A stretch of 55,732 bases of DNA from the IMG/VR virus record IMGVR_UViG_3300021959_000051, positions 1 to 55,732 of that record; one strand, 5' to 3'. Shown here piece after piece: positions 15,777 to 38,172 of the stretch (the stretch's first letter is position 1; each line of letters opens with the position of its first letter). The notes beneath the pieces were generated by a model. That model worked only from the letters and a program-made list of their open reading frames with translations, had not been told where the DNA came from and searched no databases. A program made the position numbers and the translations under genes. The DNA comes from a virus (lineage: Duplodnaviria; Caudoviricetes).

Positions 15777-15784
15777 TATTTATA
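15777..15784 (-). promoter_or_regulatory. Late promoter TATAAATA overlapping the FkbM stop codon
   Basis: Exact motif 24 nt upstream of ATG 15753. Confidence 0.8.
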
Positions 15785-16388: not shown

Positions 16389-16630
16389 TACTCTTCTGCG
16401 AGTTCTTCCGCTACATTATCATCTGAAGCTTCTAAAGAACCTGATAGACTATTAACAAAGAATTGCCGTGCTGCTTGAAGCTGAGCCATTTCCATATTTA
16501 AGTTACTAACCTTATTATCAAGATTGCCAATTTGCTGCAGCATACCCTTTTGCTCATCTGTCAGATCCTCAACAGCATATTCATTATCGTTGATTGTGAT
16601 CATTTGTTTTTGTGTCGGTTCTTCAGCCAT
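16388..16630 (-). CDS. Small coiled-coil protein (DUF6447-like)
   Basis: ITINDNEYAVEDLTDEQK followed by heptads. Confidence 0.6.
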   Translation of the reverse strand: MAEEPTQKQMITINDNEYAVEDLTDEQKGMLQQIGNLDNKVSNLNMEMAQLQAARQFFVNSLSGSLEASDDNVAEELAEE

Positions 16631-18351: not shown

Positions 18352-18718
18352 ATGATTTTTCTTCAACTAAGTCAGATCCAACCTTTAGATTGATATCTTT
18401 TTTTACTTTAGCTCTTTTATCGTTAGTAATATATACTGACCGAGCAAGCTCAATAAACTCTTGATCAAACTCTTTCTTTGATTCCTTTACTCGAATCTTG
18501 TCCTCAATATCCCAGAGCTCTGCATTTATATTTTCAAGAGATTGAAACTCTAATAGAATATCCGGAGCTCCTGCTTTAGAAAGAACACCACTTAGCAACA
18601 CTAACTCTTTCTGTACATTCTCTAGCTTAAGAGGATCTGTTATGTTACGATTCTTAATTCTAAGAATAGTAATCTTATCCACAAGCTCTCCAAGGCTGAT
18701 AGGTGCTTCTACAATCAT
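18338..18718 (-). CDS. DUF6165-like protein
   Basis: PISLGELVDKITILRIK...LWDIEDKIR...LARSVYITNDKRAKVK...EEKSY. Confidence 0.8.
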   Translation of the reverse strand: MIVEAPISLGELVDKITILRIKNRNITDPLKLENVQKELVLLSGVLSKAGAPDILLEFQSLENINAELWDIEDKIRVKESKKEFDQEFIELARSVYITNDKRAKVKKDINLKVGSDLVEEKSYEQY

Positions 18719-19683: not shown

Positions 19684-20115
19684 TTATTCCGGTTTAGTTG
19701 GCCAAGTTACGTTAAATGGGAATTCCTCTTGGCTTGGGATATCTTTTAGGGCTTGACGGTATGTAGACATCTCTGCAGATAATTTATTCTCCGGTAAGGT
19801 AAGATGATCTGTTTCAGCTAATATACAATCCCGATAAACTATTACATTAGACTCAGCTTCATCTTCCGACTTGTTAGATATAGAGTAATTTACCTGCCAC
19901 TCATCACCGTTTAATACAGGAGTTCCTGGTACTATATCCTGTACTTTAGAATCATATGATGGAGCTTCTAACTCTATTACCTGATAAACCCCATATGTTC
20001 CTAATACAGTATCAGATATCTCTTCTGGAAAAGATGTATCCGGATTATCTCGACGAAATTGAGCTATTGTGTACGGATATTGAACAGACAGTCCGTTTAC
20101 TGTTTTTGCATACAT
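19684..20115 (-). CDS. Tail fibre assembly chaperone-like protein
   Basis: YPYTIAQFRRDNPDTSFP and C-terminal YRQALKDIPSQEEFPFNVTWPTKP. Confidence 0.8.
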   Translation of the reverse strand: MYAKTVNGLSVQYPYTIAQFRRDNPDTSFPEEISDTVLGTYGVYQVIELEAPSYDSKVQDIVPGTPVLNGDEWQVNYSISNKSEDEAESNVIVYRDCILAETDHLTLPENKLSAEMSTYRQALKDIPSQEEFPFNVTWPTKPE

Positions 20116-21719: not shown

Positions 21720-24700
21720 TTAATCATATCTTACTTCAGTTGTGTTAATCGAAGCTACCCAACGAATATTAGTTGATGCAGCACCTGTTACAGTGATTGC
21801 CAATCCTCCGTTTGTAGTGTCAGCGGATAGTACCATGCCCCAGTTAGGTGTGTTGTCTAAAACAGTAGTTGCACTATTAACTAGGGTAGTAGTGCCAGCC
21901 GAACCCTCTCTACGAATTAAACCTTCAATCTTCCAAGCTGCACATTCAGTACCTTCGGATGCTTTTTCTCTTGCTACAATAGTGCCGTGAAATGCGTAAG
22001 CATGATTGTTAGCTAGAATTAATTGGTTGTTTGTTGTTGCAGTGCTATTATTAGTAGTAAGAGCAGTAGCAGTTGCGTTTGTAGTGGCTTGGCGAAAAAT
22101 TGTTAATGCACTTTGACTGTCTCCAGTACTAGAAAATTCTCCGTTACCAAAAGCCATTTTACCCACATACGCAGATTTAGCTTTAGTCCCAATAGCAGTA
22201 CCATTAGTGCACCATGCATAATTTGAAAACCCAAGTGTAGTCGAATACTGTCCACTAGATTGTGAGTAAGCCCCAACACTAGTGGCATATGAAGCATTAG
22301 CCACACCTGAAACAGCAACAGAGTTAGTCTGTGTCGCACAAGAGACAGAAAAATATCCCCCTATTGCAAGAGCGCCACAGCCTTGAGCTTTAGCTAGATA
22401 TCCTATCGCTACACTACGAGGACTCATAGCACCGAAGGATGAAGTGTTGTTAGATATAGCTGCTGCAAAGCCGTCTTGGGCAGCTGCCCTAGAGCATCCT
22501 AAGGCTATTGCTCCTGTACCAGAACTTGTAACCTGTGCATCATATCCAATTGCTATTGATCTAATTGCTGCTGCACAGGTCATTTGCCCTATAGCTATAG
22601 CACATACACCATAAGCTCTTGGACCGAAGCCAGTACCCCCATAACCACCACCAATTGCAATTGAAAGCTGCGCAGTAGCTTTAGGACCGACAGAAGTAGA
22701 ATTAGATGAACCTACAGCTGTAGCATAAGCTCCAGTAGCAACAGAAGAGGCTCCAATAGCAAGAGAACGGTCTGCTGTCGCGCAGGATTGAGGCCCAAGC
22801 GCTACAGATGTGTCTCCTGAAGCTCTCATATTTCTACCAATGGCTATTGATTGACTTCCACAAGCGCAAGCTCCATCCCCGAACGCTTGAGCAGAAAACC
22901 CTGTCGCCTCAGAATTACTACCAATTGCAACTCCATTACTACCTGTTGCAGATGGGGTTGTAGAGCTCGATGGATTTTCAGCATAGAGAGTCGTACCTCC
23001 TCCGCCGCCTCCTGATGCTGCTGCAAGCACAAGACCACCACTAGAAGTGCTGTATGTTAATACATGACCATCAGTAGACCCAAGACCTGGGATACGTAGC
23101 AGGTTGTTGTTAGCGTTACCAAGAGTAATTTCATTAGACACGGTAGCTGATGACGCATCTGCACAACAACCCAAAACAATATTGTTTGATCCAGTTGTTA
23201 AAGAAACGCCAGCACTTCTACCAATAGCTGTGTTGTGTGTGCCAGTAGTTAGATTGCATAACGCAAAACTACCAACAGCAGTATTACCTTGAGATGTTGT
23301 AACAGAGCCCATTGATAAGTAACCGACGGCTACGTTACAGCAAGAAGTAGTAGCGCTTTGCATTGCACTTGATCCGACTATAGTATTACCATGTCGTTTA
23401 ATTGTTTTACCAGCACAATGACCGATAGCAACGTTATTAACCCCACAGAAATATGCTGAATGAGTACCAATAGAAACGTTGCATCCGCAGTTACCAAAAG
23501 TACCTGCAAACGCACCTAATGCAACGTTGCATGAAGCAGTTGTGGTAGTGTAACCTGCACCATCACCAAAATATGCATGATACTGCCCTGTAGTGGTGTT
23601 TAATCCCGCATCTCTACCTACAGCTGTATTGCAACTAGCACTAGTAGTACATGCCAGAGCTCTGCATCCAACCGCAGTATTATTATTACCAATAACTTTA
23701 CATATTAAAGCCTTAAAACCAATAGCAGTATTACCATAACCAGTTGTGTTGGAACACAAAGAGCAGTTACCTATTGATGTGTTGTAACAACCAAATGTAT
23801 TTGATTTTAATGCTTTATACCCTACTGCTGTATTACACATCCCAGAGGTGTTGCCGCATAACCCATAAGTACCCATAGCAGTGTTCTGTGCGCCAATAGT
23901 ATTATTGCGCATCGCAAACATACCAAACGCATTATTATATGCACCTGATGTGTTTTGTTGTAGAGAGTATGCACCAAATGCAGTTGTATATGCACTTGTG
24001 TTGTTTTCAGCTGCATTTGAACCAACAGCTGTTATAAAGTGCGCTGTTGTATTTGTCTTACCTGCGCTTTGACCCATATAGGTGTTTTGATAACCAGAAG
24101 TATTAGCACAACCTGCTTTATCACCAATTGCGTTGTTAGACGAACCCGAAGCTGATCTCAGACCATAACTACCAATAGAAATATTATAATTACCACCAGC
24201 TAACTGTTGCGAGTTCATACCCAACGCAATAGCATGCTGAGGCTGAGAACCTAGGTTGCACATCGCAGATTCACCAATTGCTATACTATTACGACCGGCT
24301 GCGGTTGTCCCTAAGTTTTTACCTGCTGAGTGGCCTACAGCAACGTTGCTATAACCAACTGTGGCTTGGCACATCGCACAAGCACCAACAGCTGTGTTAT
24401 TATATCCTGTTGTGCTTGAATTTAGAGTACTAAATCCTACTGCTACTGTATTACATCCTGTTGTGTTAGCATGCATTACAGAGTTACCAATGGCAACGTT
24501 TTTTCTACCAATTGTGGTGTTGTATGAAGCAGCGTAACCTATAGCAACGTTGGAATCACCGCCAGTGCCTTGCCTCATAGCAGATGTGCCAATAACAACG
24601 TTATAACCGCCAGTAATATTACTTCTCATAGCAGAGGAACCAATAGCTACGTTATACTGACCTGTTGTATTACAATATAAGGCTTCGTTACCTACCGCAG

Positions 24701-27700
24701 TATGACCACCTGTACATGATTTAAACAGAGCTCTATATCCAACAGCTGTACCATAGCTATTAGTTGTATTACATCTCATAGCACAAACGCCAATAGCAAC
24801 GTTTTTGCCTGCACAAGTGTTGGCCATCAATGACATAGAGCCAATAGCAATGTTCTCTTGACCTGTTGTATTAGCAATCATCGCCTCTGTTCCAATTGCT
24901 ACGTTGCACGACCCGGTCGTATTAAAAAATAGAGATTGATGGCCAACAGCTGTATTACAAGTTGCCCCAAGGCTGCAGGCCATTGATTGGTTACCAAGCG
25001 CTGTGTTGCACCCAGCTGTAATTTTTGACATAGCTTTCGAGCCAATAGCAACATTGTTAAACATTGGAGAACTACCTGCAGCACACATTGCGCCATAACC
25101 AATAGCAACTTGGTGATCTGCTGAACCAAGTGTCTTACCTGCATGTGCACCAATCAGAATATTTTGATCACCAGATGAATTTAAGCTACAGCCTGCAGAA
25201 AAACCGACAGTTACGTTACCAGTGCCCCCGGTACCTGCATTTGTTCCCAAACCTAAATTATTTGTTCCAGTAGTAGAAGCATCGCTTAGATCATCAATAG
25301 CTGATGCACCACCACCACCGCCTCCTCCTGATGCAGCTGCAAGTACTAATGAGGTGCCATTATAACATAATACATGACCTGATGAAGCGCCTGCTTGCAA
25401 TCCTGGCAATCTAAGCACTGTGTTAGATGTATTGCCAATTACTATTTCATTTGATGTAGTTGCTGATGTTGCTTGCGCGCCATGTCCAATTATAATATTA
25501 TTACCACCAGTTGTAATTGTATTACCTGAGGCTCTTCCTAGGAAAGTATTACACACCCCTGATGTTACATTCTGACCAGATCCTGAACCTATTGCTGTGT
25601 TAAATTCCCCTGTTACTTTACATAAAGCCCAGCTACCAATAGCAGTGTTATACATTACATAACCTGTGTGGTCCATCATGGCTTTGTAACCAATAGCAGT
25701 AGAACCATAAGCTCCTGTGGCACTTTTCATTGCACAGTTACCTACAGCAACGTTAGCTCTTACTGTAGTACCCGCGCACATTGTATTACAACCAATAGCA
25801 ACATTATCAATTCCAGTGGTAATACACGAACCTGCAAAGTACCCCAGTGCTTGATTGCCATTTCCAGTAGCACATTTTAAAACACAGTAACCTACACCGA
25901 CAGAATTTTGAACTGGTTTTCTAGATCCTGAGTTACCTATTAATACGTTTCTGCATGCTGCCGGTCCTAGATCAGTGAATCTACCCATAACTACATTGTC
26001 GCTACCTGTAGTAATACAAGCACCTGCATTCTGTCCAAACAAGCTATTAGAAGCACCTGATGTGATAGCTACACCAGTGCAATACCCTACAGCTGTGTTA
26101 CAACCTGAACCTGTTTGCGATTTAAGAGAATTATTACCAACAGCTGTACTGTAAAAACTACCATTACCGTTACCGGTATCTGAGCACATTGCATTAGTAC
26201 CAATGGCTATTACCCCTTGAAACGCATTTACACAAACTCTATTTTTTAAAGCGTTAGTACCAATTGCAATGTTATTTTGGTCTTTAGTATTACTAAAGTT
26301 TGCACATCGGCCAATAGCTATGTTACTGTAAGCACCGGCTGAATTATGACATTGCATAGCTTGCGTACCTATAGCAATATTATTACTACCTATAGCTGCG
26401 TTACCATAACCAGCTTTCCAACCTATAAACACGTTACAATCACCACAAGTAACAGATCTCATAGCATCTTTACCGATAACTACGTTATATTTTCCTGCAG
26501 TGTTTTGATACATTGCCATCGAACCAACAGCAACGTTAGAGTGTCCAAGAGAGGTAGTTTGCATACTGCGTATAGCATTAAACCCGATTGCAACTGTGTC
26601 ATATGTATTAACCGCTTGCTTTAAGGCCTCTGTACCTATAGCTACGTTCATTACTCCTGTAGTATTTGCTGCCAGGGCGCATATACCTACTGCAGTAACA
26701 CTCCTATCTGTTGCGGTTAATGCAGCTAATGCATTAGTACCTAATCCAACGCTTGTGGCATTAGTCTTAGCATCACTTAGATCATTAATGGCTGATGCAC
26801 CTCCTCCACCACCACCTGATGCAGCCGCTAAGACCAATGAAGTACCATTGTAACACATGATGTGCCCTGACGATGCACCGGATTGCAAACCAGGAATCCT
26901 AAACGCTGTGATATTAGCATCACCAAGTGTGATTTCGTTATTGACGGTTGCAGAGCTTGCAGAAGCTCCTCTACCCAAAAGAAGATTACAAGATCCTGTT
27001 GTAAGACTTAAACCTGCCTGTTCACCAATTGCTGTGTTACATACACCGGTTGTTAAAGATCTTAAACTTAATCTACCCATTGCAATGTTGCAACCGCCGG
27101 TAGTAGTTGAACATAAAGTTTCTAGTCCAATACCAATATTTAAACAAGCAGTAGTGTTAACTTTACCTGAGCGTATACCAACGTAAATATTGCAGTTGCC
27201 AGCAGTAGAATTACACGCAGCTCCATAACCAACAGCTATGTTATAATTACCAGTTAAATTGTTGCGAAAGCTGCTAGAGCCAAGGGCAACATTACCATTG
27301 CCAGTATTGCAAGCCATACCATATCTACCAACTGCAGTCTGTTGATTACCTCCCTTTGAGTTGGCATAATAACCTATACTAACCGCCGATCCTGATGTAT
27401 TTTTCCAACCAGCTGCGTAACCAATTAACACAGATTGTTCTATATTTGTCGCACACTTACCAGCCGATGCACCTAATACTGTAGCGAAGCATCCAGTAAC
27501 ATTACAGCACATAGCCTGTTCACCAATAGCTGTATTCCATCTCACAGCAGTTGCTTTATAACCAGCGTTTCTACCTACATATGTATTTGCATATCCAGTC
27601 GTAGTACTATAACCTGCGAATGCGCCAATAGCCGTCATACACCCACCGGTTGTTAAATTAGTAAATGCATGATTACCAACAGCAACGTTTTGATTGGAAG

Positions 27701-28724
27701 ATGTTTGTGTCTTTAAAGCGTTTGAGCCGATAGCGACATTCCAATAACCAGTAACTACAGAACATAAAGTATTTGAACCTATAGCAACACTTTCTGTACC
27801 TGTGGTTAAAAGCTTTAACGCATTGAGACCAATAGCTACATTACAATTGGATGACCCATCATCATTAGCTAGTGCATTAGTACCTAGACCCAGTGAAGTT
27901 GTATCTGGAGACTTACCATCAGATAGACCATTAATATTAGAAGCTCCACCCCCAGTAGTAGCCCAAGATACAGTTCCACTACCGTTTGTTGTGAGAACTT
28001 GATTTGCAGATCCGTCTGCAGCAGGTAAAGTAAAAGCATTATTGAATGTTACGGTACCTAAAGCGTTTATAGTTAAAGGGTTGCAATGAGCTGATGGGTT
28101 ATGGCAATAAGTACAAAACTTAATTGTATTACCAGAACTATTAGTCTTCAATTCAAACCCTTGGCCTCCAACATGTTGAAGATGACCAGCTACGCCTGAG
28201 GTTCCACTGTTAAATTCAATTTTACTAGTACCAAAGTTACCAGTACCATCACCAAAAGTTAGCGTTGGGTTACCAGATGCTACACTTGTTGAAATATCAG
28301 CAACATTAGTAATTGTATTACCCTGGCCATCAAGATTTCCTCCAAGTTGTGGAGTTGTATCTTCTACAATATCACTCAGACCTGACCCTGCTGCAGCTGT
28401 TGAAGCTGCAACGTTGACAAAAACGGGTGTTTCTGCGCTGTCTTGATAATAAACGTTTAGAGTACCATCTTGCTTATCATACCATAAATCACCAGGTTTA
28501 ACGGTTGTTGGTACATCACTATCGATGAGTGCTCCAATTTGATGAAGCCTGACATAATCAGAATCTACTAGATTTGAAACTGCAGCTGAATCTAATCCAC
28601 CGCCTCCACCACCACCACCGACAGCAGAAGAGATTGTTGCACTAGTTGTGGCATCAAGAGATGCAATATTTTGTAATTGCCTACTATCATTAACGACTGT
28701 AGTACCTGTAATCTTGATGGCCAT
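21720..28724 (-). CDS. Giant Cys-rich tail fibre/adhesin, 2334 aa (three 17-aa-repeat modules plus a YadA-head-like module)
   Basis: N[TV]A[VI]GxxALxxNTTGxx repeats; fibre motifs DTTPQLGGNLD and LPAADGSANQVLTTNGSG; about 84 Cys by manual count. Confidence 0.85.
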   Translation of the reverse strand: MAIKITGTTVVNDSRQLQNIASLDATTSATISSAVGGGGGGGGLDSAAVSNLVDSDYVRLHQIGALIDSDVPTTVKPGDLWYDKQDGTLNVYYQDSAETPVFVNVAASTAAAGSGLSDIVEDTTPQLGGNLDGQGNTITNVADISTSVASGNPTLTFGDGTGNFGTSKIEFNSGTSGVAGHLQHVGGQGFELKTNSSGNTIKFCTYCHNPSAHCNPLTINALGTVTFNNAFTLPAADGSANQVLTTNGSGTVSWATTGGGASNINGLSDGKSPDTTSLGLGTNALANDDGSSNCNVAIGLNALKLLTTGTESVAIGSNTLCSVVTGYWNVAIGSNALKTQTSSNQNVAVGNHAFTNLTTGGCMTAIGAFAGYSTTTGYANTYVGRNAGYKATAVRWNTAIGEQAMCCNVTGCFATVLGASAGKCATNIEQSVLIGYAAGWKNTSGSAVSIGYYANSKGGNQQTAVGRYGMACNTGNGNVALGSSSFRNNLTGNYNIAVGYGAACNSTAGNCNIYVGIRSGKVNTTACLNIGIGLETLCSTTTGGCNIAMGRLSLRSLTTGVCNTAIGEQAGLSLTTGSCNLLLGRGASASSATVNNEITLGDANITAFRIPGLQSGASSGHIMCYNGTSLVLAAASGGGGGGASAINDLSDAKTNATSVGLGTNALAALTATDRSVTAVGICALAANTTGVMNVAIGTEALKQAVNTYDTVAIGFNAIRSMQTTSLGHSNVAVGSMAMYQNTAGKYNVVIGKDAMRSVTCGDCNVFIGWKAGYGNAAIGSNNIAIGTQAMQCHNSAGAYSNIAIGRCANFSNTKDQNNIAIGTNALKNRVCVNAFQGVIAIGTNAMCSDTGNGNGSFYSTAVGNNSLKSQTGSGCNTAVGYCTGVAITSGASNSLFGQNAGACITTGSDNVVMGRFTDLGPAACRNVLIGNSGSRKPVQNSVGVGYCVLKCATGNGNQALGYFAGSCITTGIDNVAIGCNTMCAGTTVRANVAVGNCAMKSATGAYGSTAIGYKAMMDHTGYVMYNTAIGSWALCKVTGEFNTAIGSGSGQNVTSGVCNTFLGRASGNTITTGGNNIIIGHGAQATSATTSNEIVIGNTSNTVLRLPGLQAGASSGHVLCYNGTSLVLAAASGGGGGGGASAIDDLSDASTTGTNNLGLGTNAGTGGTGNVTVGFSAGCSLNSSGDQNILIGAHAGKTLGSADHQVAIGYGAMCAAGSSPMFNNVAIGSKAMSKITAGCNTALGNQSMACSLGATCNTAVGHQSLFFNTTGSCNVAIGTEAMIANTTGQENIAIGSMSLMANTCAGKNVAIGVCAMRCNTTNSYGTAVGYRALFKSCTGGHTAVGNEALYCNTTGQYNVAIGSSAMRSNITGGYNVVIGTSAMRQGTGGDSNVAIGYAASYNTTIGRKNVAIGNSVMHANTTGCNTVAVGFSTLNSSTTGYNNTAVGACAMCQATVGYSNVAVGHSAGKNLGTTAAGRNSIAIGESAMCNLGSQPQHAIALGMNSQQLAGGNYNISIGSYGLRSASGSSNNAIGDKAGCANTSGYQNTYMGQSAGKTNTTAHFITAVGSNAAENNTSAYTTAFGAYSLQQNTSGAYNNAFGMFAMRNNTIGAQNTAMGTYGLCGNTSGMCNTAVGYKALKSNTFGCYNTSIGNCSLCSNTTGYGNTAIGFKALICKVIGNNNTAVGCRALACTTSASCNTAVGRDAGLNTTTGQYHAYFGDGAGYTTTTASCNVALGAFAGTFGNCGCNVSIGTHSAYFCGVNNVAIGHCAGKTIKRHGNTIVGSSAMQSATTSCCNVAVGYLSMGSVTTSQGNTAVGSFALCNLTTGTHNTAIGRSAGVSLTTGSNNIVLGCCADASSATVSNEITLGNANNNLLRIPGLGSTDGHVLTYSTSSGGLVLAAASGGGGGGTTLYAENPSSSTTPSATGSNGVAIGSNSEATGFSAQAFGDGACACGSQSIAIGRNMRASGDTSVALGPQSCATADRSLAIGASSVATGAYATAVGSSNSTSVGPKATAQLSIAIGGGYGGTGFGPRAYGVCAIAIGQMTCAAAIRSIAIGYDAQVTSSGTGAIALGCSRAAAQDGFAAAISNNTSSFGAMSPRSVAIGYLAKAQGCGALAIGGYFSVSCATQTNSVAVSGVANASYATSVGAYSQSSGQYSTTLGFSNYAWCTNGTAIGTKAKSAYVGKMAFGNGEFSSTGDSQSALTIFRQATTNATATALTTNNSTATTNNQLILANNHAYAFHGTIVAREKASEGTECAAWKIEGLIRREGSAGTTTLVNSATTVLDNTPNWGMVLSADTTNGGLAITVTGAASTNIRWVASINTTEVRYD

Positions 28725-28734
28725 GGATTAATCC

Positions 28735-29394
28735 TTATTTTTTTATTTTATTTAACCAGCTCATAAAATCACCATTCCAACGTTTTGTCCCGACATGCGA
28801 AAGTTTAATAGATGGGTCAAGCCATACCTTACCGCCCAACTTTCTCCACTTCCTACAAAATACAATATCCTCAGATATTAGTTCACCTTTTTCATCTACT
28901 ACTATATCAAAAATCATTTTAATTGGTTTAGGTTTATGTGATTCGGTATATTCTATACTATCATCTGAAACTGTTTGCAACGCTTTTCTTGTTAATCTTA
29001 AAAAACCTGTTGCAATACCTTCAACTTCTACCAAACCACTCTCTTCAAATTTCATATTCCCATCTAATACTTTGACGGGATAATCTTCTTCATCGCCCTT
29101 TTTAGGGTAAATTCCTCCAACAACATCAGCATCATGCTCTAGTAGCTTGAAGAAATCTTCGGGGTTCCAATCAACGTCACAATCAATGAAAACTAAATCA
29201 TCGACTTCTTGATCTAAAGCTAATTTGGCAATATCATTTCTAGCACGTTGTACTAACGAATCATATGACATGTAAATGCAATAAACGTTTATGTCCTTTG
29301 CAAGACCTGCTTTGCAAGTCTCGCTAAGAGCCGATGCATGCCATACGGTTATAGTACCGTCGTAAGACGGCGCTGCAATCATAACATTTCTCAT
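28735..29394 (-). CDS. Glycosyltransferase, GT-A fold (GT2-like)
   Basis: SLVQRARN, FIDCDVDW (DxD), ATGFLRL, SEDIVFC, LSHVG motifs. Confidence 0.85.
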   Translation of the reverse strand: MRNVMIAAPSYDGTITVWHASALSETCKAGLAKDINVYCIYMSYDSLVQRARNDIAKLALDQEVDDLVFIDCDVDWNPEDFFKLLEHDADVVGGIYPKKGDEEDYPVKVLDGNMKFEESGLVEVEGIATGFLRLTRKALQTVSDDSIEYTESHKPKPIKMIFDIVVDEKGELISEDIVFCRKWRKLGGKVWLDPSIKLSHVGTKRWNGDFMSWLNKIKK

Positions 29395-29409
29395 TATATA
29401 AGATCCCTA

Positions 29410-29757
29410 TTAACCTAGTGTGTCTAGATCAAAGTCATCTACAGCAGACTCTTCAGGTTCTGCGGGTGCTAGATTGAACGCCTCGTAATGTGCGTGAAAT
29501 ACGTGATCATCGATAACAGCAGGCATCATTGCGATGAGTTCTGCTTTTGTGTAGTCAGTTGCTACTTTTGATGGTGTTTCGATTTCAACTGATTCAGAGT
29601 AATCTGAATTCCATGCTGGCTGTACTGGATCTGCGTCTGCATCTCCTGCGTAAGCATAGTTTACTTCGATTTCCCACCGAGTTACTTTATTATCGGACGC
29701 ACGTTTAGTTGGTACCGCTTTTGCAAGCGTTTTAGTTACCGGTGAATATGTAGCCAT
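29410..29757 (-). CDS. Hypothetical protein heading the GT-fibre transcript
   Basis: 115-aa ORF with AAGGAG RBS and late promoter upstream. Confidence 0.75.
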   Translation of the reverse strand: MATYSPVTKTLAKAVPTKRASDNKVTRWEIEVNYAYAGDADADPVQPAWNSDYSESVEIETPSKVATDYTKAELIAMMPAVIDDHVFHAHYEAFNLAPAEPEESAVDDFDLDTLG

Positions 29758-29787
29758 TTTCGACTCCTTTAAGGTTACTAGGCATGA

Positions 29788-30603
29788 TTATTTCATACCA
29801 TTATTTATAATAGTTCTACGTTCTATATCTTCTTCAATACATTTATTTCCATACTGTACTTCAAGTATATGACATGGTTTGTCATAAGGATTGTAAGCTC
29901 TATGCCAATCTTCCTTATGTATAACATAAGTCTGATGTTCTTTTAAAGCTATTGTTTCATCTCTGCCAGCATTAGTTTGGATAATATCCCCATGCTCAAT
30001 ATCTATCTTTAACATTCCTTCAAGAACGTACCAATGTTCGCTTCTATGAAAATGTTTTTGATCTGAAAGAGACTTGCCAGGATTAATTACTAGCTCCTTA
30101 GCTTTGACAGTACCTTTATCATCAAGTACTCGCCAATACCCCCATTCTCGTTCTGTCTTTTGAGTCTTCCACTCATCAAGAATCCAACTACTAGAATTCT
30201 TTTTATTGTTTCCACCAACACCAAATACAAATCCTATACTGCCTTGATCAGCCAAAGATCTAGCGTACTCTACTTCTGGAGTCGACCCCTTATGTCTATC
30301 TCCTCCGTTAGCAAATATAATTTGTGAACCTTTTGGAAAGTTTTCTCTAATATGGTTAATAGCATTTACTGCATGATCTTCGCTATCATCAAAAGCAAAA
30401 GACATACCAACACCTTTAATATTGTTGACTATATCTAATCTTTCTTCAATAGGCATGAACGGTCTACCTTTTTTTCGAGTTAGCCACTCATCACTATTTA
30501 CTCCTACACATAGGATATCTCCAAGCTTTTTAGCTTCTTGAAAATACTTTACATGTCCAGAGTGAAGGGGATCAAAGCCCCCTGTCACTAAAACAACTTT
30601 CAT
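29788..30603 (-). CDS. Cytidylyl/adenylyltransferase (TagD/RfaE-II family) fused to a mannose-6-phosphate-isomerase-type cupin
   Basis: TGGFDPLHSGH (HxGH), GVNSDEWLTRKKGRPF, FANGGDR; C-terminal REWGYW...SDQKHFHRSEHW...LEVQYG...EEDIER. Confidence 0.9.
   Translation of the reverse strand: MKVVLVTGGFDPLHSGHVKYFQEAKKLGDILCVGVNSDEWLTRKKGRPFMPIEERLDIVNNIKGVGMSFAFDDSEDHAVNAINHIRENFPKGSQIIFANGGDRHKGSTPEVEYARSLADQGSIGFVFGVGGNNKKNSSSWILDEWKTQKTEREWGYWRVLDDKGTVKAKELVINPGKSLSDQKHFHRSEHWYVLEGMLKIDIEHGDIIQTNAGRDETIALKEHQTYVIHKEDWHRAYNPYDKPCHILEVQYGNKCIEEDIERRTIINNGMK
29802..29809 (-). promoter_or_regulatory. Late promoter TATAAATA inside the 3' end of the nucleotidyltransferase gene
   Basis: Exact motif 45 nt upstream of ATG 29757. 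Confidence 0.75.
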
Positions 30604-30613
30604 AATTACTCCA

Positions 30614-33600
30614 TTATATTTTAGATTTCAACTCATTAATTTGATGCTGTTGATCTTGAACTGCTTGTACAAGGAAGGCAATAATCTGTGAATAATTAAC
30701 AACCTTCTTACCTTCTATATTAGTCGATACTGCTTCAGGAATCAACTGTTCTAGTTCCTGAGCGATGACACCGTAAGACTTTTTACCATCTTTCTTCCAA
30801 GTAAAGCTAACAGGATTAATACTATTAACAATATCTAAACCATCATCAATTGTTTCAATGTTTTCTTTGAGTGTTACATCTGATGTAGCATTAAAGTCAA
30901 CTGCACTTACTTGTCCACCACTATTTATACTATAGCTTAGAGCTGGTATTCTCATTGCCGTGATATTAGCATCACCTAATGTAATTTCATTTGATACTGT
31001 AGCTGATGATGGTTGAGCATTATAACCAAGTGCTATAATATTTGACCCTGTTGTGAGAGTACAGCCAGCATTAGTTCCTAAGGATGTGTTGTTAAGACCT
31101 GTAGTAGTATTATATAATGCGAATCTACCAACAGCTGTGTTACAGCAACCAGAAGTTGACATATTTAAAGCAAAATTACCAACTGCTGTAGATTGCCTTT
31201 GATAAGTAGCGTTATACATCGCACTAACGCCTACAGCAACGTTATTACTACCGTTTCCTGTACCAGCTTTACCGGCATTTACTCCTACAAATATATTATT
31301 ATCACCAGCACTTAATCCACACCCTGCAAGATAACCAATAGCTGTATTACACTGCCCATAACGTGATTGATTACGTAATGCACATGTACCTATAGCAATA
31401 GAAGCGTTTTGAACTGGATAGTCTGTTATTGCTCCTAGTGCATCTGTACCAATAGCAATTCCACCAACACCAGTTGTAACAGAGCCTAGAGCTCCTCCAC
31501 CTACAGCAATATTACTAGTACCAGTAGTGAGAGCATCAAGAGTAGAAGACCCTATAGCTATGTTTAAATTACCAGAAGATCCACAGCGCATAGCTCTATG
31601 ACCGATAGCAATGTTTTGTGAACCGGGTTGATTACCTTCATGAGCCTGCCAACCAATTGCAACACCGTATTTTGTTGTAGTGCCTAGACGGTTATATTGA
31701 CCGAGAGTGGAGTTACCATACCCTGTAGTTACTCTACATGCTGCTTGAGTACCTATAGTAGTGCTTGGAGCTGTATTAGTGCTGTTATATCCTGCTTGGC
31801 ATCCAATAGATACTTGATATCTAGTATTAGTACCACATTTGTTAGCTTCATAACCTATAGATATGTTACCATATCCTTGTGCATTAGATTCTAATGCACT
31901 CATTCCTATAGCAATGTTCCGGATACCAGTAGTATTAGAAAGTAAAGAATATACACCCACTGCAACATTACTATGACCAGATGTATTAAGTTCTAATGCC
32001 CGAGTACCAACTGCTACGTTACTGCAACCTGTAATGTTGCTGCGCATTGCACAAGAACCAACAGCAGTGTTTTGCTTGTTTAGAGTTCCAACTCCTAATT
32101 GTAGAGTACATGCACCTACAGCAACGTTATCTTTACCATCTGTATTGGCACATAAGGCGTTTCTACCAACCGCAACATTATCTAGACCTACTGTATTAGC
32201 TCTTAGACTGTAGTATCCAACTGCAGTATTATACCCTCCTGTAGTATTAAAGTACATGGATTGATAACCAACCGCTGTATTACCAGCAGCAGTAATAGAA
32301 TTATTTAAAGTACTGGTACCCAAAGCAGTATTGTAGTTACCGCAAATATTATAACCTGCATAATGTCCAACTGCTGTGTTACCATTACCTCCAATATTAT
32401 CCACTAGAGCACCTGAACCGATAGCTACATTGTATGCGCCAGTAGTTGCATTTGCTAGAGATAACCATCCAACTGATGTATTCATACCATATGATGTTGT
32501 AACCGCTGCTTGTGATTTCCTACCAACAGCAGTTGAATAAGATGCGCCATTTAGGTTACGCATTGCCCATTGACCAACTGCTACGTTACCTGCACCTGTT
32601 GTGTTTGTATATAGTGCACACTCACCTAAAGCAGTGTTTTCATTATTAGTACCATCATCATTAGCTAATGCATTAGATCCAAGACCGATTGTATGAGTAC
32701 CATGAGTAACTCCATCACTTAGATCATCAACAGCAGATGCGCCGCCACCACTAGAAGCGGCAGCTAGTACGAGCGATGTACCGTTGTAACACATTATATG
32801 ACCTGATGAAGCACCAGATTGTAGTCCAGGAATCCTAAACGCTGTAATGTTAGCATCACCTAGCGTGATTTCATTAGAAGTTGTAGCCGATGTTGCTTGA
32901 GCATTATAACCTAAAGTTAGATTATTACATCCACTAGAAATGGTCCTACCAGCCTCTGCACCAACCGCTGTATTGCACCTACCAGTTGTTACAACACACA
33001 AAGTTGCATACCCAAAACCAGTATTTAGTTGACATTTTGATTGTCTCAGAGAGCCATACCCTACAGCAGTATTACAAGAACCAGTTATATTAGCACCCAA
33101 GGTTTGCATACCAACAGCTACGTTTAACCAACCTGTAGTATTTGCTGACAGCGCAGTATCACCAACCGCAGTATTCCTAGCACCACACACGTTTGATTTT
33201 AATGCGTTATATCCTACAGCTGTACCGTAGTTTGCTTGGTTAGAATTTAAAGAACAATGTCCTAGTGCAGTGTTTCTTTTACCAACAGTGATTAATTGTA
33301 ATGATTTAAACCCTACAGCGGTATTGCAAGAGCCTGTTGTATTTGAAACTAATGCAGAAGAGCCAACGGCAGTGTTAAAACAGCCAGTAGTGTTAGCTTG
33401 CATAGCAAAAGTACCAAGAGCAGTATTGCATGAACCATGAGTTGTAAACAATAAAGCATTAGTTCCAACAGCTACGTTTTCATGCCCTGTTACGCTATTT
33501 TTAAGTGCGAAAGAACCTACAGAGGTATTATAATTTCCGGTGGTGTTAGCACACCCGGCATTGTAACCTACTGCTACGTTATCTGTACCAATAGTATTAT

Positions 33601-36600
33601 TACGCGAGCCATACATACCAATTGCAGTATTACGTTGACCTGTTGTATTGTTACGAAGTGTGCCATGGCCAACAGCCATAGATCCATAACCAGTTGTAGT
33701 ATTCAGCATTGAATACATACCAATAGCTATATTATTATTGTGAACTGAATTACTTGCATATGAACCTATTTTGTGTAATGCATAATATCCTATAGCAACG
33801 TGACTAATACCGGCACCGCATGATGCCCCCATTGCTCCAGATCCAAGAATAACATTATAGTTAGATCCGTTAGATCCAGATAACTTACACCCTGCATTAT
33901 GACCTAAAACAACGTTATGAGTACCAGTGGAAATACTGCATAGAGCTGAGTGGCCTGCAACGACATTATTCGTACCAGTAACACTGCTGTTTAGAGCTGA
34001 ATGTCCAATAGCAACATTACAATTTGTAGTTCCATCATCATTTGCTAGAGCGTTGGTACCTAGACCTAATGATGATACATCAGGTGATTTACCATCAGAT
34101 AGACCATCAATGTTTGATGCTCCGCCGCTGCTTGCAGCTGCTAGAACCAATGAAGTGCCATTGTAGCACATTACGTGCCCTGACGATGCTCCTGCTTGTA
34201 GTCCGGGAAGACGAAATACTGTGTGCGCTGTTGAACCTAGAGTAATCTCATTAGATGTAGTAGACGATGTAGCTTGTGCGTCTTTTCCTAAAACAATATT
34301 GTTGGCACCAGTTGTTAGTGTACACCCAGCTTTATAACCTAAAAGAGCATTATTGCCCCCACTTGTGATTGCACACCCAGCCAGAGCGCCAACAGCAACG
34401 TTAACATCGCCATTACCCACAGTCTTTAAGGTGTATGGACCAATTGCTACGTTACAGCTTGTATAATTACTATTACCCACACCCATTGCACATAAGCCAA
34501 TAGCAACATTTTCTAGAGGACTTGTATGAGTTTTTAATGCATCTTTACCAATAGCAACGTTACCGGTACATATACAGTTACCCATAAGAGCTTGATGACC
34601 TACAGCCGTATTATCATTTCCTGTAGTTTGCTTACATGCTGCTCTATAACCAACTGCTGTAGTTCGACTACCACCTGAATTTTGATGTAATCCATAAACA
34701 CCGACTGCTACGTTATTACATCCAGTAGTTGTAGAAATAGCCGATTGCCAACCGAGAGCAGTGTTCATTCCACCTGTTGTAATATTAGTTAATGATGTAT
34801 CACCAACTGCTGTATTATATGAACCTGTAGTAGTATCATATAAAGCTTTATAACCAATAGCTGTGTTTGACTGACCACCGGTGCCGGTTTGCAAAGCAGA
34901 ACCACCTACAGCTGTATTAAATCTACCAGTAGTATTACCATACAGCGCTGCGTCACCAATAGCAATGTTTTGACACCCTGTAGTATTTTTACGTAGTGCG
35001 TATGAACCAACAGCAACGTTACATTTGCCTATAGTATTAAGCTGTAAAGCACAAGCACCTAGGGCAGTATTTCTTTCACCGGTTGTATTAGAGCATAATG
35101 ATTGATAACCAACACTAGTATTATAGTCAGCTCCTGTGTTTGCATACATAGAACACATACCAACTGCAGTATTATAATTTCCTGTAGTACTGGTATGAAG
35201 AGCATATGAGCCAACTGCAGTATTATTAGTTCCAGTTCTGTTTGAAAATAAAGCTCTGTGTCCCACTGCGACTATATTATTAATATTGCGAATGTTAAAC
35301 GCTGCTTCTTTACCTACTATAGTGTTATTGCTGCCCGAGACATATTTTCCTGCTGACAATCCTACTGCAACGTTGCCAGTACCAGCTGTACCTCCGTTCG
35401 CAGCAGAATACCCAATTATAGTATTACATTGACCACCGGCATTGAGTTTCATGGCTCCGGTACCAACCGCAACATTAAATCTTGCAGTTATTGCATCACA
35501 CATTGCTTCATTACCTATAACGGTATTATGAGTACCTGTAGTGTTACCATGTAGAGCGTGGGTACCTACAGCTGTGTTCTGTACACCAGTTGTAGTATCT
35601 TTCATTGCGCAATAGCCGACAGCAGTATTACACTCACCAATAGTATTAGAATGTAATGAATTAGCACCAAAAGCAGCGTTAAACATACCACAAGTATTTG
35701 CATACATAGAACATTTACCAACAGCAGTATTTGAATTTGATGATCCATCATCATTTGCTAGAGCACTAGATCCCAATCCTATCGATGAAGCATCTGGAGA
35801 TTTACCATCTGATAAGCCATCGATGTTTGTTGCACCACCGCCAGCATCTGCGAAGCTAGTTACACCAGAGCCATTTGTCGTAAGTACTTGTCCATTAGTA
35901 CCATCAGATGTAGGAAGATCATAAGTTTCTGAAATTCGCACAGTAGCAGTTGCATCGCCAATAACAACTTGGTTTGACGTAGTTGTAGTTGCGTTATAAC
36001 CTATAGCGGTTGAAGCTGTATGTGAAGCGGAAGCACTTCTACCAAGAGCAACTGAACTAGTTCCCGCAGCAACTGTAGAGTGTCCTACAGACGTACTACC
36101 AAAACCACTTGCATAAGCACCCCTACCAAGTGCGGTTGCATAAGTATTTCTAGCCTCTGAATTATAACCTAGTGCTGTAGCGGATTCAGTGTTAGCAATA
36201 GAAATATGACCTATTGCTATACTATTCGACGCTGATGCTACTGCCCCACTGCCAATAGCTAATGCATCTAAATTTGATGCTACTGCACTATCCCCAATAG
36301 CAACAGCGTTGGCGCCACTCGCTAAAGGAGTAGTAGCACTTGAAGGATTATCTCGGTAGAGGGCTGGTTCTGCAGAAACCCAATCGTAATCAGATCCATT
36401 CCAGCTTAGAACTTCTCCTGAAGCTGCTGTACTTTGATTTAAATGTGTATTAACTGATGCATCGTTATAACTACCAGCTGCAGTAATAGCAGCGTTAATC
36501 TGAGTCTGAACATTGTCAGAATCAGCAAAGCTCTTAATTACATTTGAGGAGTTTTTATAGTAGAGATTACCATCAGCATAGTTAATGGCTAACTCACCAT

Positions 36601-36670
36601 AATCAAGATCACTAGTCCCAGGAGCATTACTCGAAACGGAGGACTTCTTTAGTTTAATCGTAGCTGTCAT
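30614..36670 (-). CDS. Giant Cys-rich tail fibre, 2018 aa, with C-terminal intramolecular chaperone (peptidase S74-like)
   Basis: N-terminal IKLKKSS...GELAINYADG; 17-aa repeats; C-terminal TSDVTLKENIETI...YGVIAQELE...VNYSQIIAFLVQAVQD; about 52 Cys by manual count. Confidence 0.88.
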   Translation of the reverse strand: MTATIKLKKSSVSSNAPGTSDLDYGELAINYADGNLYYKNSSNVIKSFADSDNVQTQINAAITAAGSYNDASVNTHLNQSTAASGEVLSWNGSDYDWVSAEPALYRDNPSSATTPLASGANAVAIGDSAVASNLDALAIGSGAVASASNSIAIGHISIANTESATALGYNSEARNTYATALGRGAYASGFGSTSVGHSTVAAGTSSVALGRSASASHTASTAIGYNATTTTSNQVVIGDATATVRISETYDLPTSDGTNGQVLTTNGSGVTSFADAGGGATNIDGLSDGKSPDASSIGLGSSALANDDGSSNSNTAVGKCSMYANTCGMFNAAFGANSLHSNTIGECNTAVGYCAMKDTTTGVQNTAVGTHALHGNTTGTHNTVIGNEAMCDAITARFNVAVGTGAMKLNAGGQCNTIIGYSAANGGTAGTGNVAVGLSAGKYVSGSNNTIVGKEAAFNIRNINNIVAVGHRALFSNRTGTNNTAVGSYALHTSTTGNYNTAVGMCSMYANTGADYNTSVGYQSLCSNTTGERNTALGACALQLNTIGKCNVAVGSYALRKNTTGCQNIAIGDAALYGNTTGRFNTAVGGSALQTGTGGQSNTAIGYKALYDTTTGSYNTAVGDTSLTNITTGGMNTALGWQSAISTTTGCNNVAVGVYGLHQNSGGSRTTAVGYRAACKQTTGNDNTAVGHQALMGNCICTGNVAIGKDALKTHTSPLENVAIGLCAMGVGNSNYTSCNVAIGPYTLKTVGNGDVNVAVGALAGCAITSGGNNALLGYKAGCTLTTGANNIVLGKDAQATSSTTSNEITLGSTAHTVFRLPGLQAGASSGHVMCYNGTSLVLAAASSGGASNIDGLSDGKSPDVSSLGLGTNALANDDGTTNCNVAIGHSALNSSVTGTNNVVAGHSALCSISTGTHNVVLGHNAGCKLSGSNGSNYNVILGSGAMGASCGAGISHVAIGYYALHKIGSYASNSVHNNNIAIGMYSMLNTTTGYGSMAVGHGTLRNNTTGQRNTAIGMYGSRNNTIGTDNVAVGYNAGCANTTGNYNTSVGSFALKNSVTGHENVAVGTNALLFTTHGSCNTALGTFAMQANTTGCFNTAVGSSALVSNTTGSCNTAVGFKSLQLITVGKRNTALGHCSLNSNQANYGTAVGYNALKSNVCGARNTAVGDTALSANTTGWLNVAVGMQTLGANITGSCNTAVGYGSLRQSKCQLNTGFGYATLCVVTTGRCNTAVGAEAGRTISSGCNNLTLGYNAQATSATTSNEITLGDANITAFRIPGLQSGASSGHIMCYNGTSLVLAAASSGGGASAVDDLSDGVTHGTHTIGLGSNALANDDGTNNENTALGECALYTNTTGAGNVAVGQWAMRNLNGASYSTAVGRKSQAAVTTSYGMNTSVGWLSLANATTGAYNVAIGSGALVDNIGGNGNTAVGHYAGYNICGNYNTALGTSTLNNSITAAGNTAVGYQSMYFNTTGGYNTAVGYYSLRANTVGLDNVAVGRNALCANTDGKDNVAVGACTLQLGVGTLNKQNTAVGSCAMRSNITGCSNVAVGTRALELNTSGHSNVAVGVYSLLSNTTGIRNIAIGMSALESNAQGYGNISIGYEANKCGTNTRYQVSIGCQAGYNSTNTAPSTTIGTQAACRVTTGYGNSTLGQYNRLGTTTKYGVAIGWQAHEGNQPGSQNIAIGHRAMRCGSSGNLNIAIGSSTLDALTTGTSNIAVGGGALGSVTTGVGGIAIGTDALGAITDYPVQNASIAIGTCALRNQSRYGQCNTAIGYLAGCGLSAGDNNIFVGVNAGKAGTGNGSNNVAVGVSAMYNATYQRQSTAVGNFALNMSTSGCCNTAVGRFALYNTTTGLNNTSLGTNAGCTLTTGSNIIALGYNAQPSSATVSNEITLGDANITAMRIPALSYSINSGGQVSAVDFNATSDVTLKENIETIDDGLDIVNSINPVSFTWKKDGKKSYGVIAQELEQLIPEAVSTNIEGKKVVNYSQIIAFLVQAVQDQQHQINELKSKI

Positions 36671-36729: not shown

Positions 36730-38172
36730 TTAGAATGTGCCGCCGTCAACTACAGCAAGAGATACTGCGCCAGAGGATACACTGAACTCAGTAGCATTAA
36801 AAGAAGCAACACCTTTGTTAGATGATGTAGCAAGCTCGGCCGCGACTGTCATTTGATTTGAGCCATCAACGTAAGTAAGATCAATACCTTCACCTGCTAA
36901 GAAGAAGTTAGTGGTCAAATGATCTTCAATGGCTTCCATAATTTTTACATCGTTAAATGTAATTGTGTTAGCATCGTTGATACCAGCTTCAATATTAACG
37001 CCGTAGTTAAAGTCCCAAGCTGTATTTGAGTTATCCCATATAATAGTTGGTTTAGTACCTGAGAATTGAGCTCCACCTACTGTAATACCAGCACCATCTG
37101 CTGCAGCTCCACCAGTAGCAGAATCAGCAAGTACAAGATTTAGGTCATTAACAGACATCGTAGTTGAGTTAATGATTGTCTGAGTACCTTGAACCTGAAG
37201 GTTACCACGAACAATTAAATTACCACCATCTGAATCTTCCGGAGCTGGATCGATGTATAGAGTATTTGATCCATCAGTAGAGCTTAGAGTGTTGCCATTT
37301 AACTTTAAGTTATCTACTGTAAGAGATGTTAGTCCTAGAACGTCACCATCTAGATCAACAGTAATAGTCTGACCAGAAGCAGCTGCAGTTAGGTTAGTAC
37401 CACCTGAAACTGTAAGAGATTGAGAGGCAAGCGCTACTGATCCAGATCCAGAGTTACCAGCTGTACTCAAAGTAGTCGTAATTGAAGCTGTTGAAGCAGA
37501 AGTCAATCGACCTTGTGCATCAACTGTAATAACTGGAATAGCAGTTGTACTACCATATGACCCAGCAGTTACCGCGGTATTGTCTAGGTTAAAAGTAGCA
37601 GTATTTGATGTAACAGCAGAGGTTATTCCAGTACCGCCAGCTAATGTAAGAGTTTCAGTAGCCGTTTCAATATTAGTCGTGCCAGTATCACCAGCAACAT
37701 CTAGATCGTTGTTAGCAGCAATAGTTGTATCAACATAAGCTTTTGTAGCAGCGTCTTGAGCACCTGAAGGATCAGTAACATTTATAATACGAGATGTACT
37801 AACATTAACTACACCTGTACCGTTAGGGTCCAGAATAACATTGCCGTTTGTGTCTGTTGAGCTAATAGTATTACCATTAATTGTAATATTATCAACATTA
37901 AGTACATCTATCTTGCTTGAAGCATCTACTAGTAGTGCAGAAGAAGCTGTAAGAGTACCAGGAGTATGATCGAGTAGATTAGCAAAATACTCACCACCAA
38001 TTGATACAATCGATGTTGCAACTCCGTTGCCGTCATCTCCTTTACCGAAGAATAGTCTATCTCCGAGATTTGCGCTAGTACCTGTACCAGCTGAGTATGC
38101 TATTTCACCAGTGGCGAGGGACGATGGAGCCGCGACACCTGTGGATCTTTTTATTCTTATTGTAGCGGCCAT
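36730..38172 (-). CDS. Tail fibre / virion structural protein, 480 aa
   Basis: TIRIKRSTG...LATGEIAYS; VTDPSGAQDAATKAYVD; VTAGSYGS...ITVDAQGRLTSAS; C-terminal DGGTF. Confidence 0.8.
   Translation of the reverse strand: MAATIRIKRSTGVAAPSSLATGEIAYSAGTGTSANLGDRLFFGKGDDGNGVATSIVSIGGEYFANLLDHTPGTLTASSALLVDASSKIDVLNVDNITINGNTISSTDTNGNVILDPNGTGVVNVSTSRIINVTDPSGAQDAATKAYVDTTIAANNDLDVAGDTGTTNIETATETLTLAGGTGITSAVTSNTATFNLDNTAVTAGSYGSTTAIPVITVDAQGRLTSASTASITTTLSTAGNSGSGSVALASQSLTVSGGTNLTAAASGQTITVDLDGDVLGLTSLTVDNLKLNGNTLSSTDGSNTLYIDPAPEDSDGGNLIVRGNLQVQGTQTIINSTTMSVNDLNLVLADSATGGAAADGAGITVGGAQFSGTKPTIIWDNSNTAWDFNYGVNIEAGINDANTITFNDVKIMEAIEDHLTTNFFLAGEGIDLTYVDGSNQMTVAAELATSSNKGVASFNATEFSVSSGAVSLAVVDGGTF

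Follow-up and report, generated by a model that had tools for sequence, protein, structure and literature searches.

Cysteine-rich repeat proteins, putative tail fibers, and the sugar-transferase and sulfotransferase genes found with them in a phage record

Trimeric autotransporter adhesins with YadA-like heads, such as BpaC (7o23), BoaA (3s6l) and CbpF, and the adhesins glycosylated by enzymes of the BAHT family, TibA by TibC and AIDA-I by Aah, are among the closest described relatives of the system considered here. In the BAHT systems the gene for an enzyme of the GT9 fold neighbors that of a long beta-helical repeat adhesin, ADP-heptose is the donor and serine the acceptor, and the enzyme has an iron-finger motif and a dodecameric assembly. 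In glycocins such as sublancin, bacteria attach sugars to the sulfur of cysteine, by means of enzymes such as SunS and ThuS; the peptides concerned are small, each having one or two sites, and the enzymes belong to the GT2 family. To our knowledge S-glycosylation of this kind is not known on any virus. The glycosylation of mycobacteriophage virions, for which we know of no described link to cysteine, is reportedly O-linked and placed on capsid and tail tube proteins, in work said to be that of Freeman et al. in Cell Host Microbe in 2023. Here we describe two long repeat proteins, A and B, encoded in a 55.7-kb phage record of IMG/VR (IMGVR_UViG_3300021959_000051; the whole stretch of 55,732 nucleotides is called the window), together with the genes that accompany them. 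A and B are best explained as the shafts of two trimeric tail fibers, as judged from predicted structure, and their cysteines are concentrated at the variable positions of a 17-residue repeat.

The resemblance to YadA-like heads lies in a predicted left-handed beta-roll, in short repeats of the N-x-A-[IV]-G type, in the three side-by-side chains of the model and in true YadA_head repeats, which occur at residues 1982-2007 of A and 201-227 of B, outside the 17-residue blocks. The differences are equally clear: the period is 17 here and 14 there, Pfam YadA_head has no match within the 17-residue blocks, no membrane anchor domain was found, and B, a virion protein, ends in a phage Peptidase_S74 domain. 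With the BAHT systems (the glycosylation of TibA is the subject of PMC3835316) the locus shares a GT9-fold enzyme gene close to a repeat adhesin-like protein, an association that recurs across records (6 of 8 with cysteine-rich fibers, 2 of 26 with cysteine-poor ones), and a heptose-nucleotide-enzyme-like gene (a match below cut-off) next to the fibers. It departs from them in that cysteine co-varies with the enzyme here, whereas serine is the acceptor there, and in its additional sulfotransferase, GT4 and methyltransferase genes. Phage glycosyltransferases near structural genes, decorating virion proteins, are a point in common with the mycobacteriophages, although here the decoration is suggested by gene context. 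Finally, PMC9942802 describes cysteines on the tail fibers of a myovirus, cyanophage Pam3, with a proposed redox role; as given there, each Pam3 fiber chain has one cysteine (Cys28) paired with defined wedge cysteines, in contrast to the 84 and 52 per chain found here, which show no partner pattern. Our literature searches found nothing on S-glycosylation of phage virion cysteines, on free cysteines in phage tail fibers or, of relevance, on a link between tail fibers and sulfotransferases in phages; a search for cysteine-rich cyanophage tail fibers returned Pam3 only and no description of the present pattern. Relative to the YadA-like heads, the BAHT systems and the glycocins, phage fibers decorated through cysteine would be new, provided that the decoration itself is real, which we regard as possible at a little less than an even chance.

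Cysteine pattern and predicted fold of the repeats

Protein A (21720-28724, minus strand; 2334 aa) contains 84 cysteines (3.6%). It has three blocks of 17-residue repeats with separating junction modules, and its C-terminal part is made of 14-residue repeats of the YadA_head type. Protein B (30614-36670, minus strand; 2018 aa), which is separated from A by three small genes, contains 52 cysteines (2.6%), also has three 17-residue repeat blocks and carries near its C-terminus a Peptidase_S74 intramolecular chaperone domain (aa 1930-1981, E 1.6e-15). This domain is a hallmark of trimeric phage fibers. A domain scan found none in A; PF13884 is present in many homologues of these fibers. The other open reading frames (ORFs) of the window mostly have 0-2% cysteine, and large structural ones (36730-38172, 49820-52618 and 52844-55642) hold 0 or 1.

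To locate the cysteines within the repeats, a circular profile of 17 columns was built from A and B themselves and then used to tile both proteins. To avoid circularity, the tiling was repeated with a profile in which cysteine scored zero in all columns. This yielded 118 well-formed repeats containing 85 cysteines: 60 repeats with 51 cysteines in A (23184-27842, minus strand; aa 295-579, 677-1075, 1170-1715 and 1780-1847) and 58 repeats with 34 cysteines in B (31040-35731, minus strand; aa 314-773, 885-918, 980-1249, 1345-1601 and 1686-1877). The repeats have a core of the form N-x-[AS]-[IVL]-G, with N at column 1 in 101 of 111 cases and G at column 5 in 118 of 118. Six variable columns carry 77 of the 85 cysteines (2 at column 6, 13 at column 7, 22 at column 10, 9 at column 11, 10 at column 16 and 21 at column 17) and columns 13-15 carry the other 8, whereas core columns 1-5, 8, 9 and 12 carry none. 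Partial repeats add 20 cysteines, every one at a variable column, so that 97 of 105 repeat cysteines in all lie at the six variable columns; 31 more lie outside the repeats. At columns 10 (22/117) and 17 (21/115) cysteine is the commonest residue. The density amounts to about 0.6-0.85 cysteines per rung in the two proteins, and 52 of the 118 repeats have none. A preliminary description, made from the sequence of the window, had placed the cysteines at the variable positions of the repeat with no fixed spacing between them; both statements are borne out, the nearest-neighbor spacing in A and B ranging from 1 to 99 residues without a preferred value. It had also reported a cysteine in four of the five junction motifs and a threonine in the fifth, which agrees with what we find: GHIMCY (26850-26867, aa 620), GHVLCY (25362-25379, aa 1116) and GHVLTY (23052-23069, aa 1886) in A, and GHVMCY (34163-34180, aa 831), a spelling that it did not list, and GHIMCY (32786-32803, aa 1290) in B, all on the minus strand.

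Outside the repeats, in the N-terminal domain of A, residues 204-214 (28083-28115) read C-x2-C-H-x5-H-C, three cysteines and two histidines within 11 residues. This domain is almost identical in a syntenic relative, L049, and the motif could be a metal site.

What fold do these repeats adopt? A module of B (aa 838-1300, 463 residues; 32771-34159, minus strand) was folded with AlphaFold2 using an alignment of 44 rows of paralogous and related modules. In the monomer model (pLDDT 83.2, pTM 0.85) short strands recur at intervals of 17 residues and form a solenoid. The best Foldseek matches of this model in the Protein Data Bank (PDB) are trimeric autotransporter heads, first BpaC (7o23, E 6.7e-5) and then CbpF and BoaA, with left-handed beta-helix enzymes ranking after them; the match to 7o23 is moderate (TMq 0.36, TMt 0.47). 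A phmmer search of the PDB with the sequence of the fiber module gave no match at E <= 1. The trimer prediction that the preliminary description had proposed used the last 304 residues of the folded module in three copies. The interface score ipSAE was 0.95, whereas the highest of three controls scored 0.00; 89% or more of the contacts were shared between runs, and partner pLDDT was at least 90. Of 30 proteins solved as pairs of one chain, 20 attain this mark, as does 1 of 23 solved as single chains; since trimeric adhesin heads have already been solved, attaining it shows likeness rather than proof. The shaft is thus predicted to be a trimeric left-handed beta-roll like that of a YadA head, with one rung per 17-residue repeat.

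In the trimer model, columns 17, 1, 2 and 4 of one chain meet columns 4-7 of the next. Contacting columns do so in 12-13 of 13 rungs (column 17 in 13, column 6 in 12), with column 7 at 6-7 of 13, and columns 3 and 8-16 are free of contacts, except for columns 8 and 16 in one or two rungs. Columns 2, 4, 5 and 17/1 would pack on neighboring chains, column 3 and the A-L pair would face the core of their own chain, and columns 10, 11 and 16 would look outwards. This map puts 49 of the 85 cysteines (columns 10, 11 and 13-16) off the interface and 36 of 85 (columns 17, 6 and 7) on the seam between chains. The earlier proposal that the cysteines face outwards is therefore only partly borne out in the model, by the first group; none of the 85 lies at a core column, where burial would have spoken against it.

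Because a given column stacks on itself from rung to rung in a solenoid, disulfide staples would appear as pairs of cysteines on neighboring rungs. Compared with shuffles that preserve columns, no such excess is present. In the window, 25 of 81 cysteines have another one rung away within one column, and these allow at most 10 disjoint pairs, against 10.9 +/- 2.3 in the shuffles; across the seam, 5 of 21 column-17 cysteines have a column-6 or column-7 cysteine within one rung, where 4.9 are expected. When the 15 cysteine-rich proteins introduced below are pooled, there are fewer pairs than in shuffled repeats, both within a repeat (110 vs 128.6 +/- 9.8) and between successive rungs (202 vs 230.3 +/- 15.0). 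The cysteines thus appear, from their placement in the sequence, to be spread out rather than paired, in agreement with the earlier view that they are not structural disulfides. A disulfide ladder, of the kind that occurs in the beta-solenoid antifreeze proteins of insects, was rejected on these counts, on the spread of cysteine over six columns and on the 52 repeats that lack it.

A scan for partner residues over 779 combinations of column and residue gave a single strong signal, a column-10 cysteine followed by a column-10 lysine on the next rung (P = 2.3e-7). In the window this stack occurs 12 times in 125 rung pairs, against a shuffle mean of 3.5, and none of 5000 shuffles reached 12. The 12 units vary at their remaining variable positions and are therefore not recent duplicates. 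The other column-10 stacks are lysine then cysteine (6) and arginine then cysteine (7), and cysteine on cysteine is rare (2). A lysine next to cysteine at this column fits a thiolate that is kept reactive. In the closest relative the signal drops to 5 against 2.7 expected; it appears once each in two of ten other cysteine-rich proteins and is nearly absent in other lineages. Histidine at column 17 is enriched on rungs with a column-10 cysteine (9/87 vs 10/409). A lanthionine-type link was rejected, because among the 779 tests no fixed neighboring threonine or serine column is required by the cysteines.

The pattern is not peculiar to the window. Among 7999 candidates scored, more than 4200 are homologues of the B module at E <= 1e-3, and the top 120 are bimodal: 103, each with 15 repeats or more, contain fewer than 0.2 cysteines per repeat, and 10 contain 0.56-1.1. 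The ten cysteine-rich homologues place cysteine at the same six columns despite differing N- and C-terminal domains. In a set of 15 cysteine-rich proteins (569 repeats) cysteine makes up 12-17% of columns 7, 10, 11, 16 and 17, whereas in the 103 cysteine-poor homologues (3539 repeats), among which the cysteine load of A and B has no counterpart, its share of every one of them rounds to 0%. The cysteine-rich repeats also have more arginine at column 10 (17% vs 7%) and less aspartate at columns 6, 7, 10, 16 and 17, so that their surface is more basic. In L049, which is 57-58% identical to A and B, variable-column cysteines in diverged blocks are kept in 25 of 53 cases compared with 88 of 450 for other residues (Fisher P = 3e-5), a contrast to be read with the fact that the matrix rewards cysteine-cysteine matches. 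The bimodal family and this conservation make the cysteines look like a selected surface trait seen repeatedly, as the preliminary description had supposed. IMG/VR yielded further cysteine-rich fibers, frequently in tandem groups of two or three, and one source is a complete 354-kb phage.

That phage (G005, 354,680 bp) has at least six ORFs matching the fiber profile within 40 kb (about 166-206 kb). Two of them were measured and have 0.93 and 1.05 cysteines per repeat. Genes for a GT9-like enzyme and a sulfotransferase follow the last fiber ORF at a distance of 1-3 kb, and a radical SAM cluster is about 60 kb away.

Enzyme genes that accompany the cysteines

Downstream of A is a tightly packed run of genes, all on the minus strand, which encode a phage tail assembly chaperone (Phage_tail_APC, 19684-20115, 143 aa), a GT9 heptosyltransferase-like glycosyltransferase (18715-19626, 303 aa, about 2 kb from A), a DUF6165 protein (18338-18718, 126 aa), a sulfotransferase (Sulfotransfer_3 and Sulfotransfer_1, 17509-18366, 285 aa), a GT1/GT4-type glycosyltransferase (16623-17525, 300 aa) and an FkbM-family methyltransferase (15780-16388, 202 aa). 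Between the fiber genes, on the same strand, is a gene for a nucleotidyltransferase resembling heptose-1-phosphate adenylyltransferase (rfaE domain II-like), fused to a cupin or mannose-6-phosphate isomerase C-terminal domain (29788-30603); this gene is kept in L049.

The GT9-like protein matches Pfam Glyco_transf_9 with E 1.2e-6. Folded with 20 relatives (pLDDT 86.5), its model finds the GT9 enzyme 3tov (E 1.5e-9), TibC (4rb4 and 4rap, E about 1e-7, TMq 0.55-0.63) and then WaaF and WaaC in Foldseek. TibC is a heptosyltransferase whose substrate is the beta-helical adhesin TibA, and WaaF and WaaC are heptosyltransferases of lipopolysaccharide. Identity to TibC in the structural alignment is 14-16%. 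By sequence, the protein has only non-significant matches in the PDB, and the best matches of the sulfotransferase there, to protein-tyrosine sulfotransferases (E 0.05-0.2), cover the PAPS loop only and are likewise non-significant.

The preliminary description overlooked that the GT9-like and sulfotransferase genes co-vary with the cysteines. Eight records hold cysteine-rich 17-residue fibers, and the sulfotransferase family is present in six of them (the window, G001, G003, G004, G005 and GenBank MH319754), within about 14 kb downstream of the fibers and mostly within about 4 kb. It is found in none of 26 records with cysteine-poor fibers, 22 from IMG/VR and 4 from GenBank (P-SSM2, P-SSM5, LR756500 and MH319732), and in none of 5 records that have the radical SAM gene only. 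In a blind test on five GenBank records, MH319754 was the only one with cysteine-rich fibers (0.53 per repeat) and the only one with the sulfotransferase. The GT9-like gene occurs in the same six of eight records and in two of the 26 cysteine-poor ones, P-SSM5 and P-SSM2, in both cases beside other proteins with 10% cysteine; with a family-specific GT9 profile, 1 of 30 control records was positive (P-SSM5). In Prochlorococcus phage P-SSM2 the 17-residue fiber itself is cysteine-poor, and the GT9-like protein, PSSM2_307 (L003 23110-24222; E 9e-68 to the window enzyme), is encoded, with a carbamoyltransferase, directly after PSSM2_304 and PSSM2_306 (L003 20088-21158 and 21887-22954), which are 355-residue proteins with 36 cysteines each (10.1%).

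The association was also followed outwards from the enzyme. A single-protein query gave 5 loci and an alignment query 79, and together 81 IMG/VR loci were examined. A detectable 17-residue fiber is present in 13 of these, and all 13 have cysteine-rich fibers (0.69-1.24 per repeat). Many of the other loci encode, just upstream of the enzyme, differing large proteins with 4-11.8% cysteine, one of which is a gpJ-like tail tip protein. Among ORFs of at least 450 aa, at least 4% cysteine is reached by 36 of 192 in the GT9 loci. In radical SAM loci none of 82 such ORFs does so, and in loci with relatives of fiber B none of 212. The link between cysteine and the GT9-like enzyme thus spans unrelated protein types, despite shared descent.

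Some individual loci may be mentioned. Proteins of about 520-1050 aa with 8-12% cysteine are encoded upstream of the GT9-like gene in L207 (6340-8829) and in L205, L208, L209, L217, L220, L231-L235, L237, L239 and L245; those of L207 and L217, the two that were checked, have no Pfam match. A carbamoyltransferase gene follows the glycosyltransferase gene in L207, and ORFs of similar size follow it in the other listed loci.

Possible roles of the cysteines

Our tentative preference, which we would place somewhat below an even chance, is that this cassette acts on the fibers and that their cysteines serve as acceptor sites for enzymatic decoration. The rfaE-like enzyme would supply the GT9-like enzyme, ADP-heptose being the putative donor, and the latter enzyme would attach a sugar to the fiber, plausibly through the thiolate as an S-linked sugar; the GT4, sulfotransferase and methyltransferase proteins would then extend and tailor this sugar, with the column-10 lysine of the following rung holding the thiols in a reactive state. 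A more specific form of the proposal, which we consider doubtful, is that the fibers are S-linked glycoproteins bearing heptose, activated by the rfaE-like enzyme of the phage, on about a hundred lysine-activated surface thiolates per chain; these sugars would then be extended, sulfated and methylated into a glycosidase-resistant coat. The same enzyme family would, in that case, act on unrelated cysteine-rich virion proteins, for example those encoded beside PSSM2_307. If true, it would be without precedent both as S-glycosylation of a viral structural protein and as S-heptosylation of any protein.

Several considerations weigh against decoration through cysteine. First, we know of no precedent for heptose on cysteine, and autotransporter heptosyltransferases are known to act on serine; the enzyme could instead modify serine and threonine, which are abundant in the repeats, or sugars of the host surface. 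Second, 21 of the 85 repeat cysteines are at column 17, which the model places on the trimer seam, so that a sugar there fits only if it were added before trimerization; and the trimer result itself may reflect likeness to solved adhesin heads, in which case it is not independent evidence. Third, the gene at 29788-30603 has rfaE domain II as its best match (E 5.6e-19), at 68 bits, below the NCBIfam cut-off of 181.5. Finally, the association has its exceptions. In two partial records with cysteine-rich fibers, G002 and G034 (12% and 29% complete), neither enzyme was found, and 46 of the 81 GT9 loci are without a cysteine-rich large ORF at a threshold of 2.5%, many of these being short fragments or weak matches. 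Since related phages share cassettes by descent, the tallies also overstate the number of independent events.

A different view, which we think unlikely, is that the cysteines are unmodified and that the cassette acts elsewhere. Free or opportunistically oxidized thiols would then give the virion a redox-sensitive surface after lysis into oxic water; they might form sporadic disulfides within a fiber, between fibers or to other parts of the virion, or be sacrificed in the scavenging of oxidants. The position of the cysteines on the surface or seam and their conservation above that of other surface residues are consistent with this, and their lysine and arginine neighbors at column 10 would make the thiols reactive. 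In Pam3, moreover, disulfides, sporadic ones among them, join the fibers to the baseplate, and dithiothreitol (DTT) frees the fibers (PMC9942802). The pooled pair counts given above are at or below chance, however, within repeats and between rungs alike, so that the layout avoids self-pairing, and free thiols leave unexplained why richness in cysteine tracks one glycosyltransferase family across unrelated types of protein.

The stacking of lysine on cysteine admits another explanation, in which N-O-S bridges or related non-disulfide staples form between column-10 rungs when the fiber meets oxygen, stiffening the shaft. The excess of these stacks in units that are not recent duplicates speaks for it, and such bridges are reported to be widespread (PMC8964421 and, for arginine and cysteine, PMC12075730). 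We nevertheless consider it improbable: it accounts for only about 12-20 of the 136 cysteines, and the signal is weak in the closest relative and seen once each in just two of the ten other cysteine-rich proteins.

There is an equally slight chance that the fibers bind metal, the surface thiols, the histidine of the GH..CY junctions and the C-x2-C-H-x5-H-C motif of A serving to capture soft metals or iron. Histidine and cysteine do occur together in four of the five junctions, and the enrichment of column-17 histidine on rungs with a column-10 cysteine points in the same direction. Against this, no multi-ligand geometry recurs, there is on average less than one cysteine per rung, no pair of columns shows a strong cysteine-cysteine or cysteine-histidine association, and the link with the glycosyltransferase is again left unexplained.

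Thioether cross-links of the sactionine or ranthionine type, made by neighboring radical SAM/SPASM enzymes, had been offered as an alternative in the preliminary description and are very improbable, because the enzyme of the window and the cysteine-bearing fiber do not co-occur across genomes, whichever of the two the comparison starts from. The idea drew on a radical SAM and SPASM protein encoded 2.2 kb upstream of fiber B (38865-39824, minus strand, 319 aa; Radical_SAM 6.8e-15, SPASM 4.8e-11) and on a second such enzyme, split in overlapping ORFs, at 46484-47528. Yet none of 45 loci with relatives of the first enzyme (35-86% identical) holds a 17-residue-repeat fiber, and the fibers downstream of its closest orthologues (72-86% identical) have 0-0.9% cysteine. 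The orthologue is present in G007 (91% complete) and G008 (100%, with terminal repeats), where the fiber profile, which detects its target in 4 of 4 positive controls, has no match and ORFs of at least 900 aa have at most 0.9% cysteine. Conversely, the syntenic cysteine-rich relative G001 has no Radical_SAM match within 30.5 kb. NCBIfam places the first enzyme in no peptide-maturase family above cut-off and assigns neither radical SAM protein to a specific subfamily.

Other genes of the window and implications

The window, which comes from an uncultured marine phage, has an estimated completeness of 31%, encodes T4-like proteins (major capsid protein, neck protein, gp15 and large terminase) and has nearly all of its genes on the minus strand. 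In the split radical SAM pair, the Radical_SAM part (46788-47528) and the SPASM start (46484-46795) overlap by 8 nt, and either a frameshift or a genuine split could account for the interruption. A NodU-type carbamoyltransferase is encoded at 42468-43784 (minus strand, 438 aa); longer relatives of it (565-575 aa) come after the GT9-like gene in L207 and L130, the two loci that were checked with Pfam. The adjacent 932-residue ORFs at 49820-52618 and 52844-55642, with 0 and 1 cysteine and no Pfam match, are probably further structural proteins. A 119-residue ORF (12169-12528) has a weak, below-cut-off match to plastocyanin/cupredoxin (E 0.003), which would fit a cyanophage.

Tail fibers decide the host range of a phage and how long its particle survives. 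The occurrence of cysteine-rich fibers with a sugar-transferase and sulfotransferase gene set in marine and freshwater phages points to an undescribed chemical dressing of virions, and such a coat could alter host range, stickiness or resistance to proteases or sunlight. If the sugar is on sulfur, virology would gain a new protein modification. As a rigid rod that presents addressable thiols at regular intervals, the fiber would also be a natural scaffold for bioconjugation. Because P-SSM2, a cultured phage, has the same enzyme beside two proteins with 10% cysteine, the idea is directly testable.

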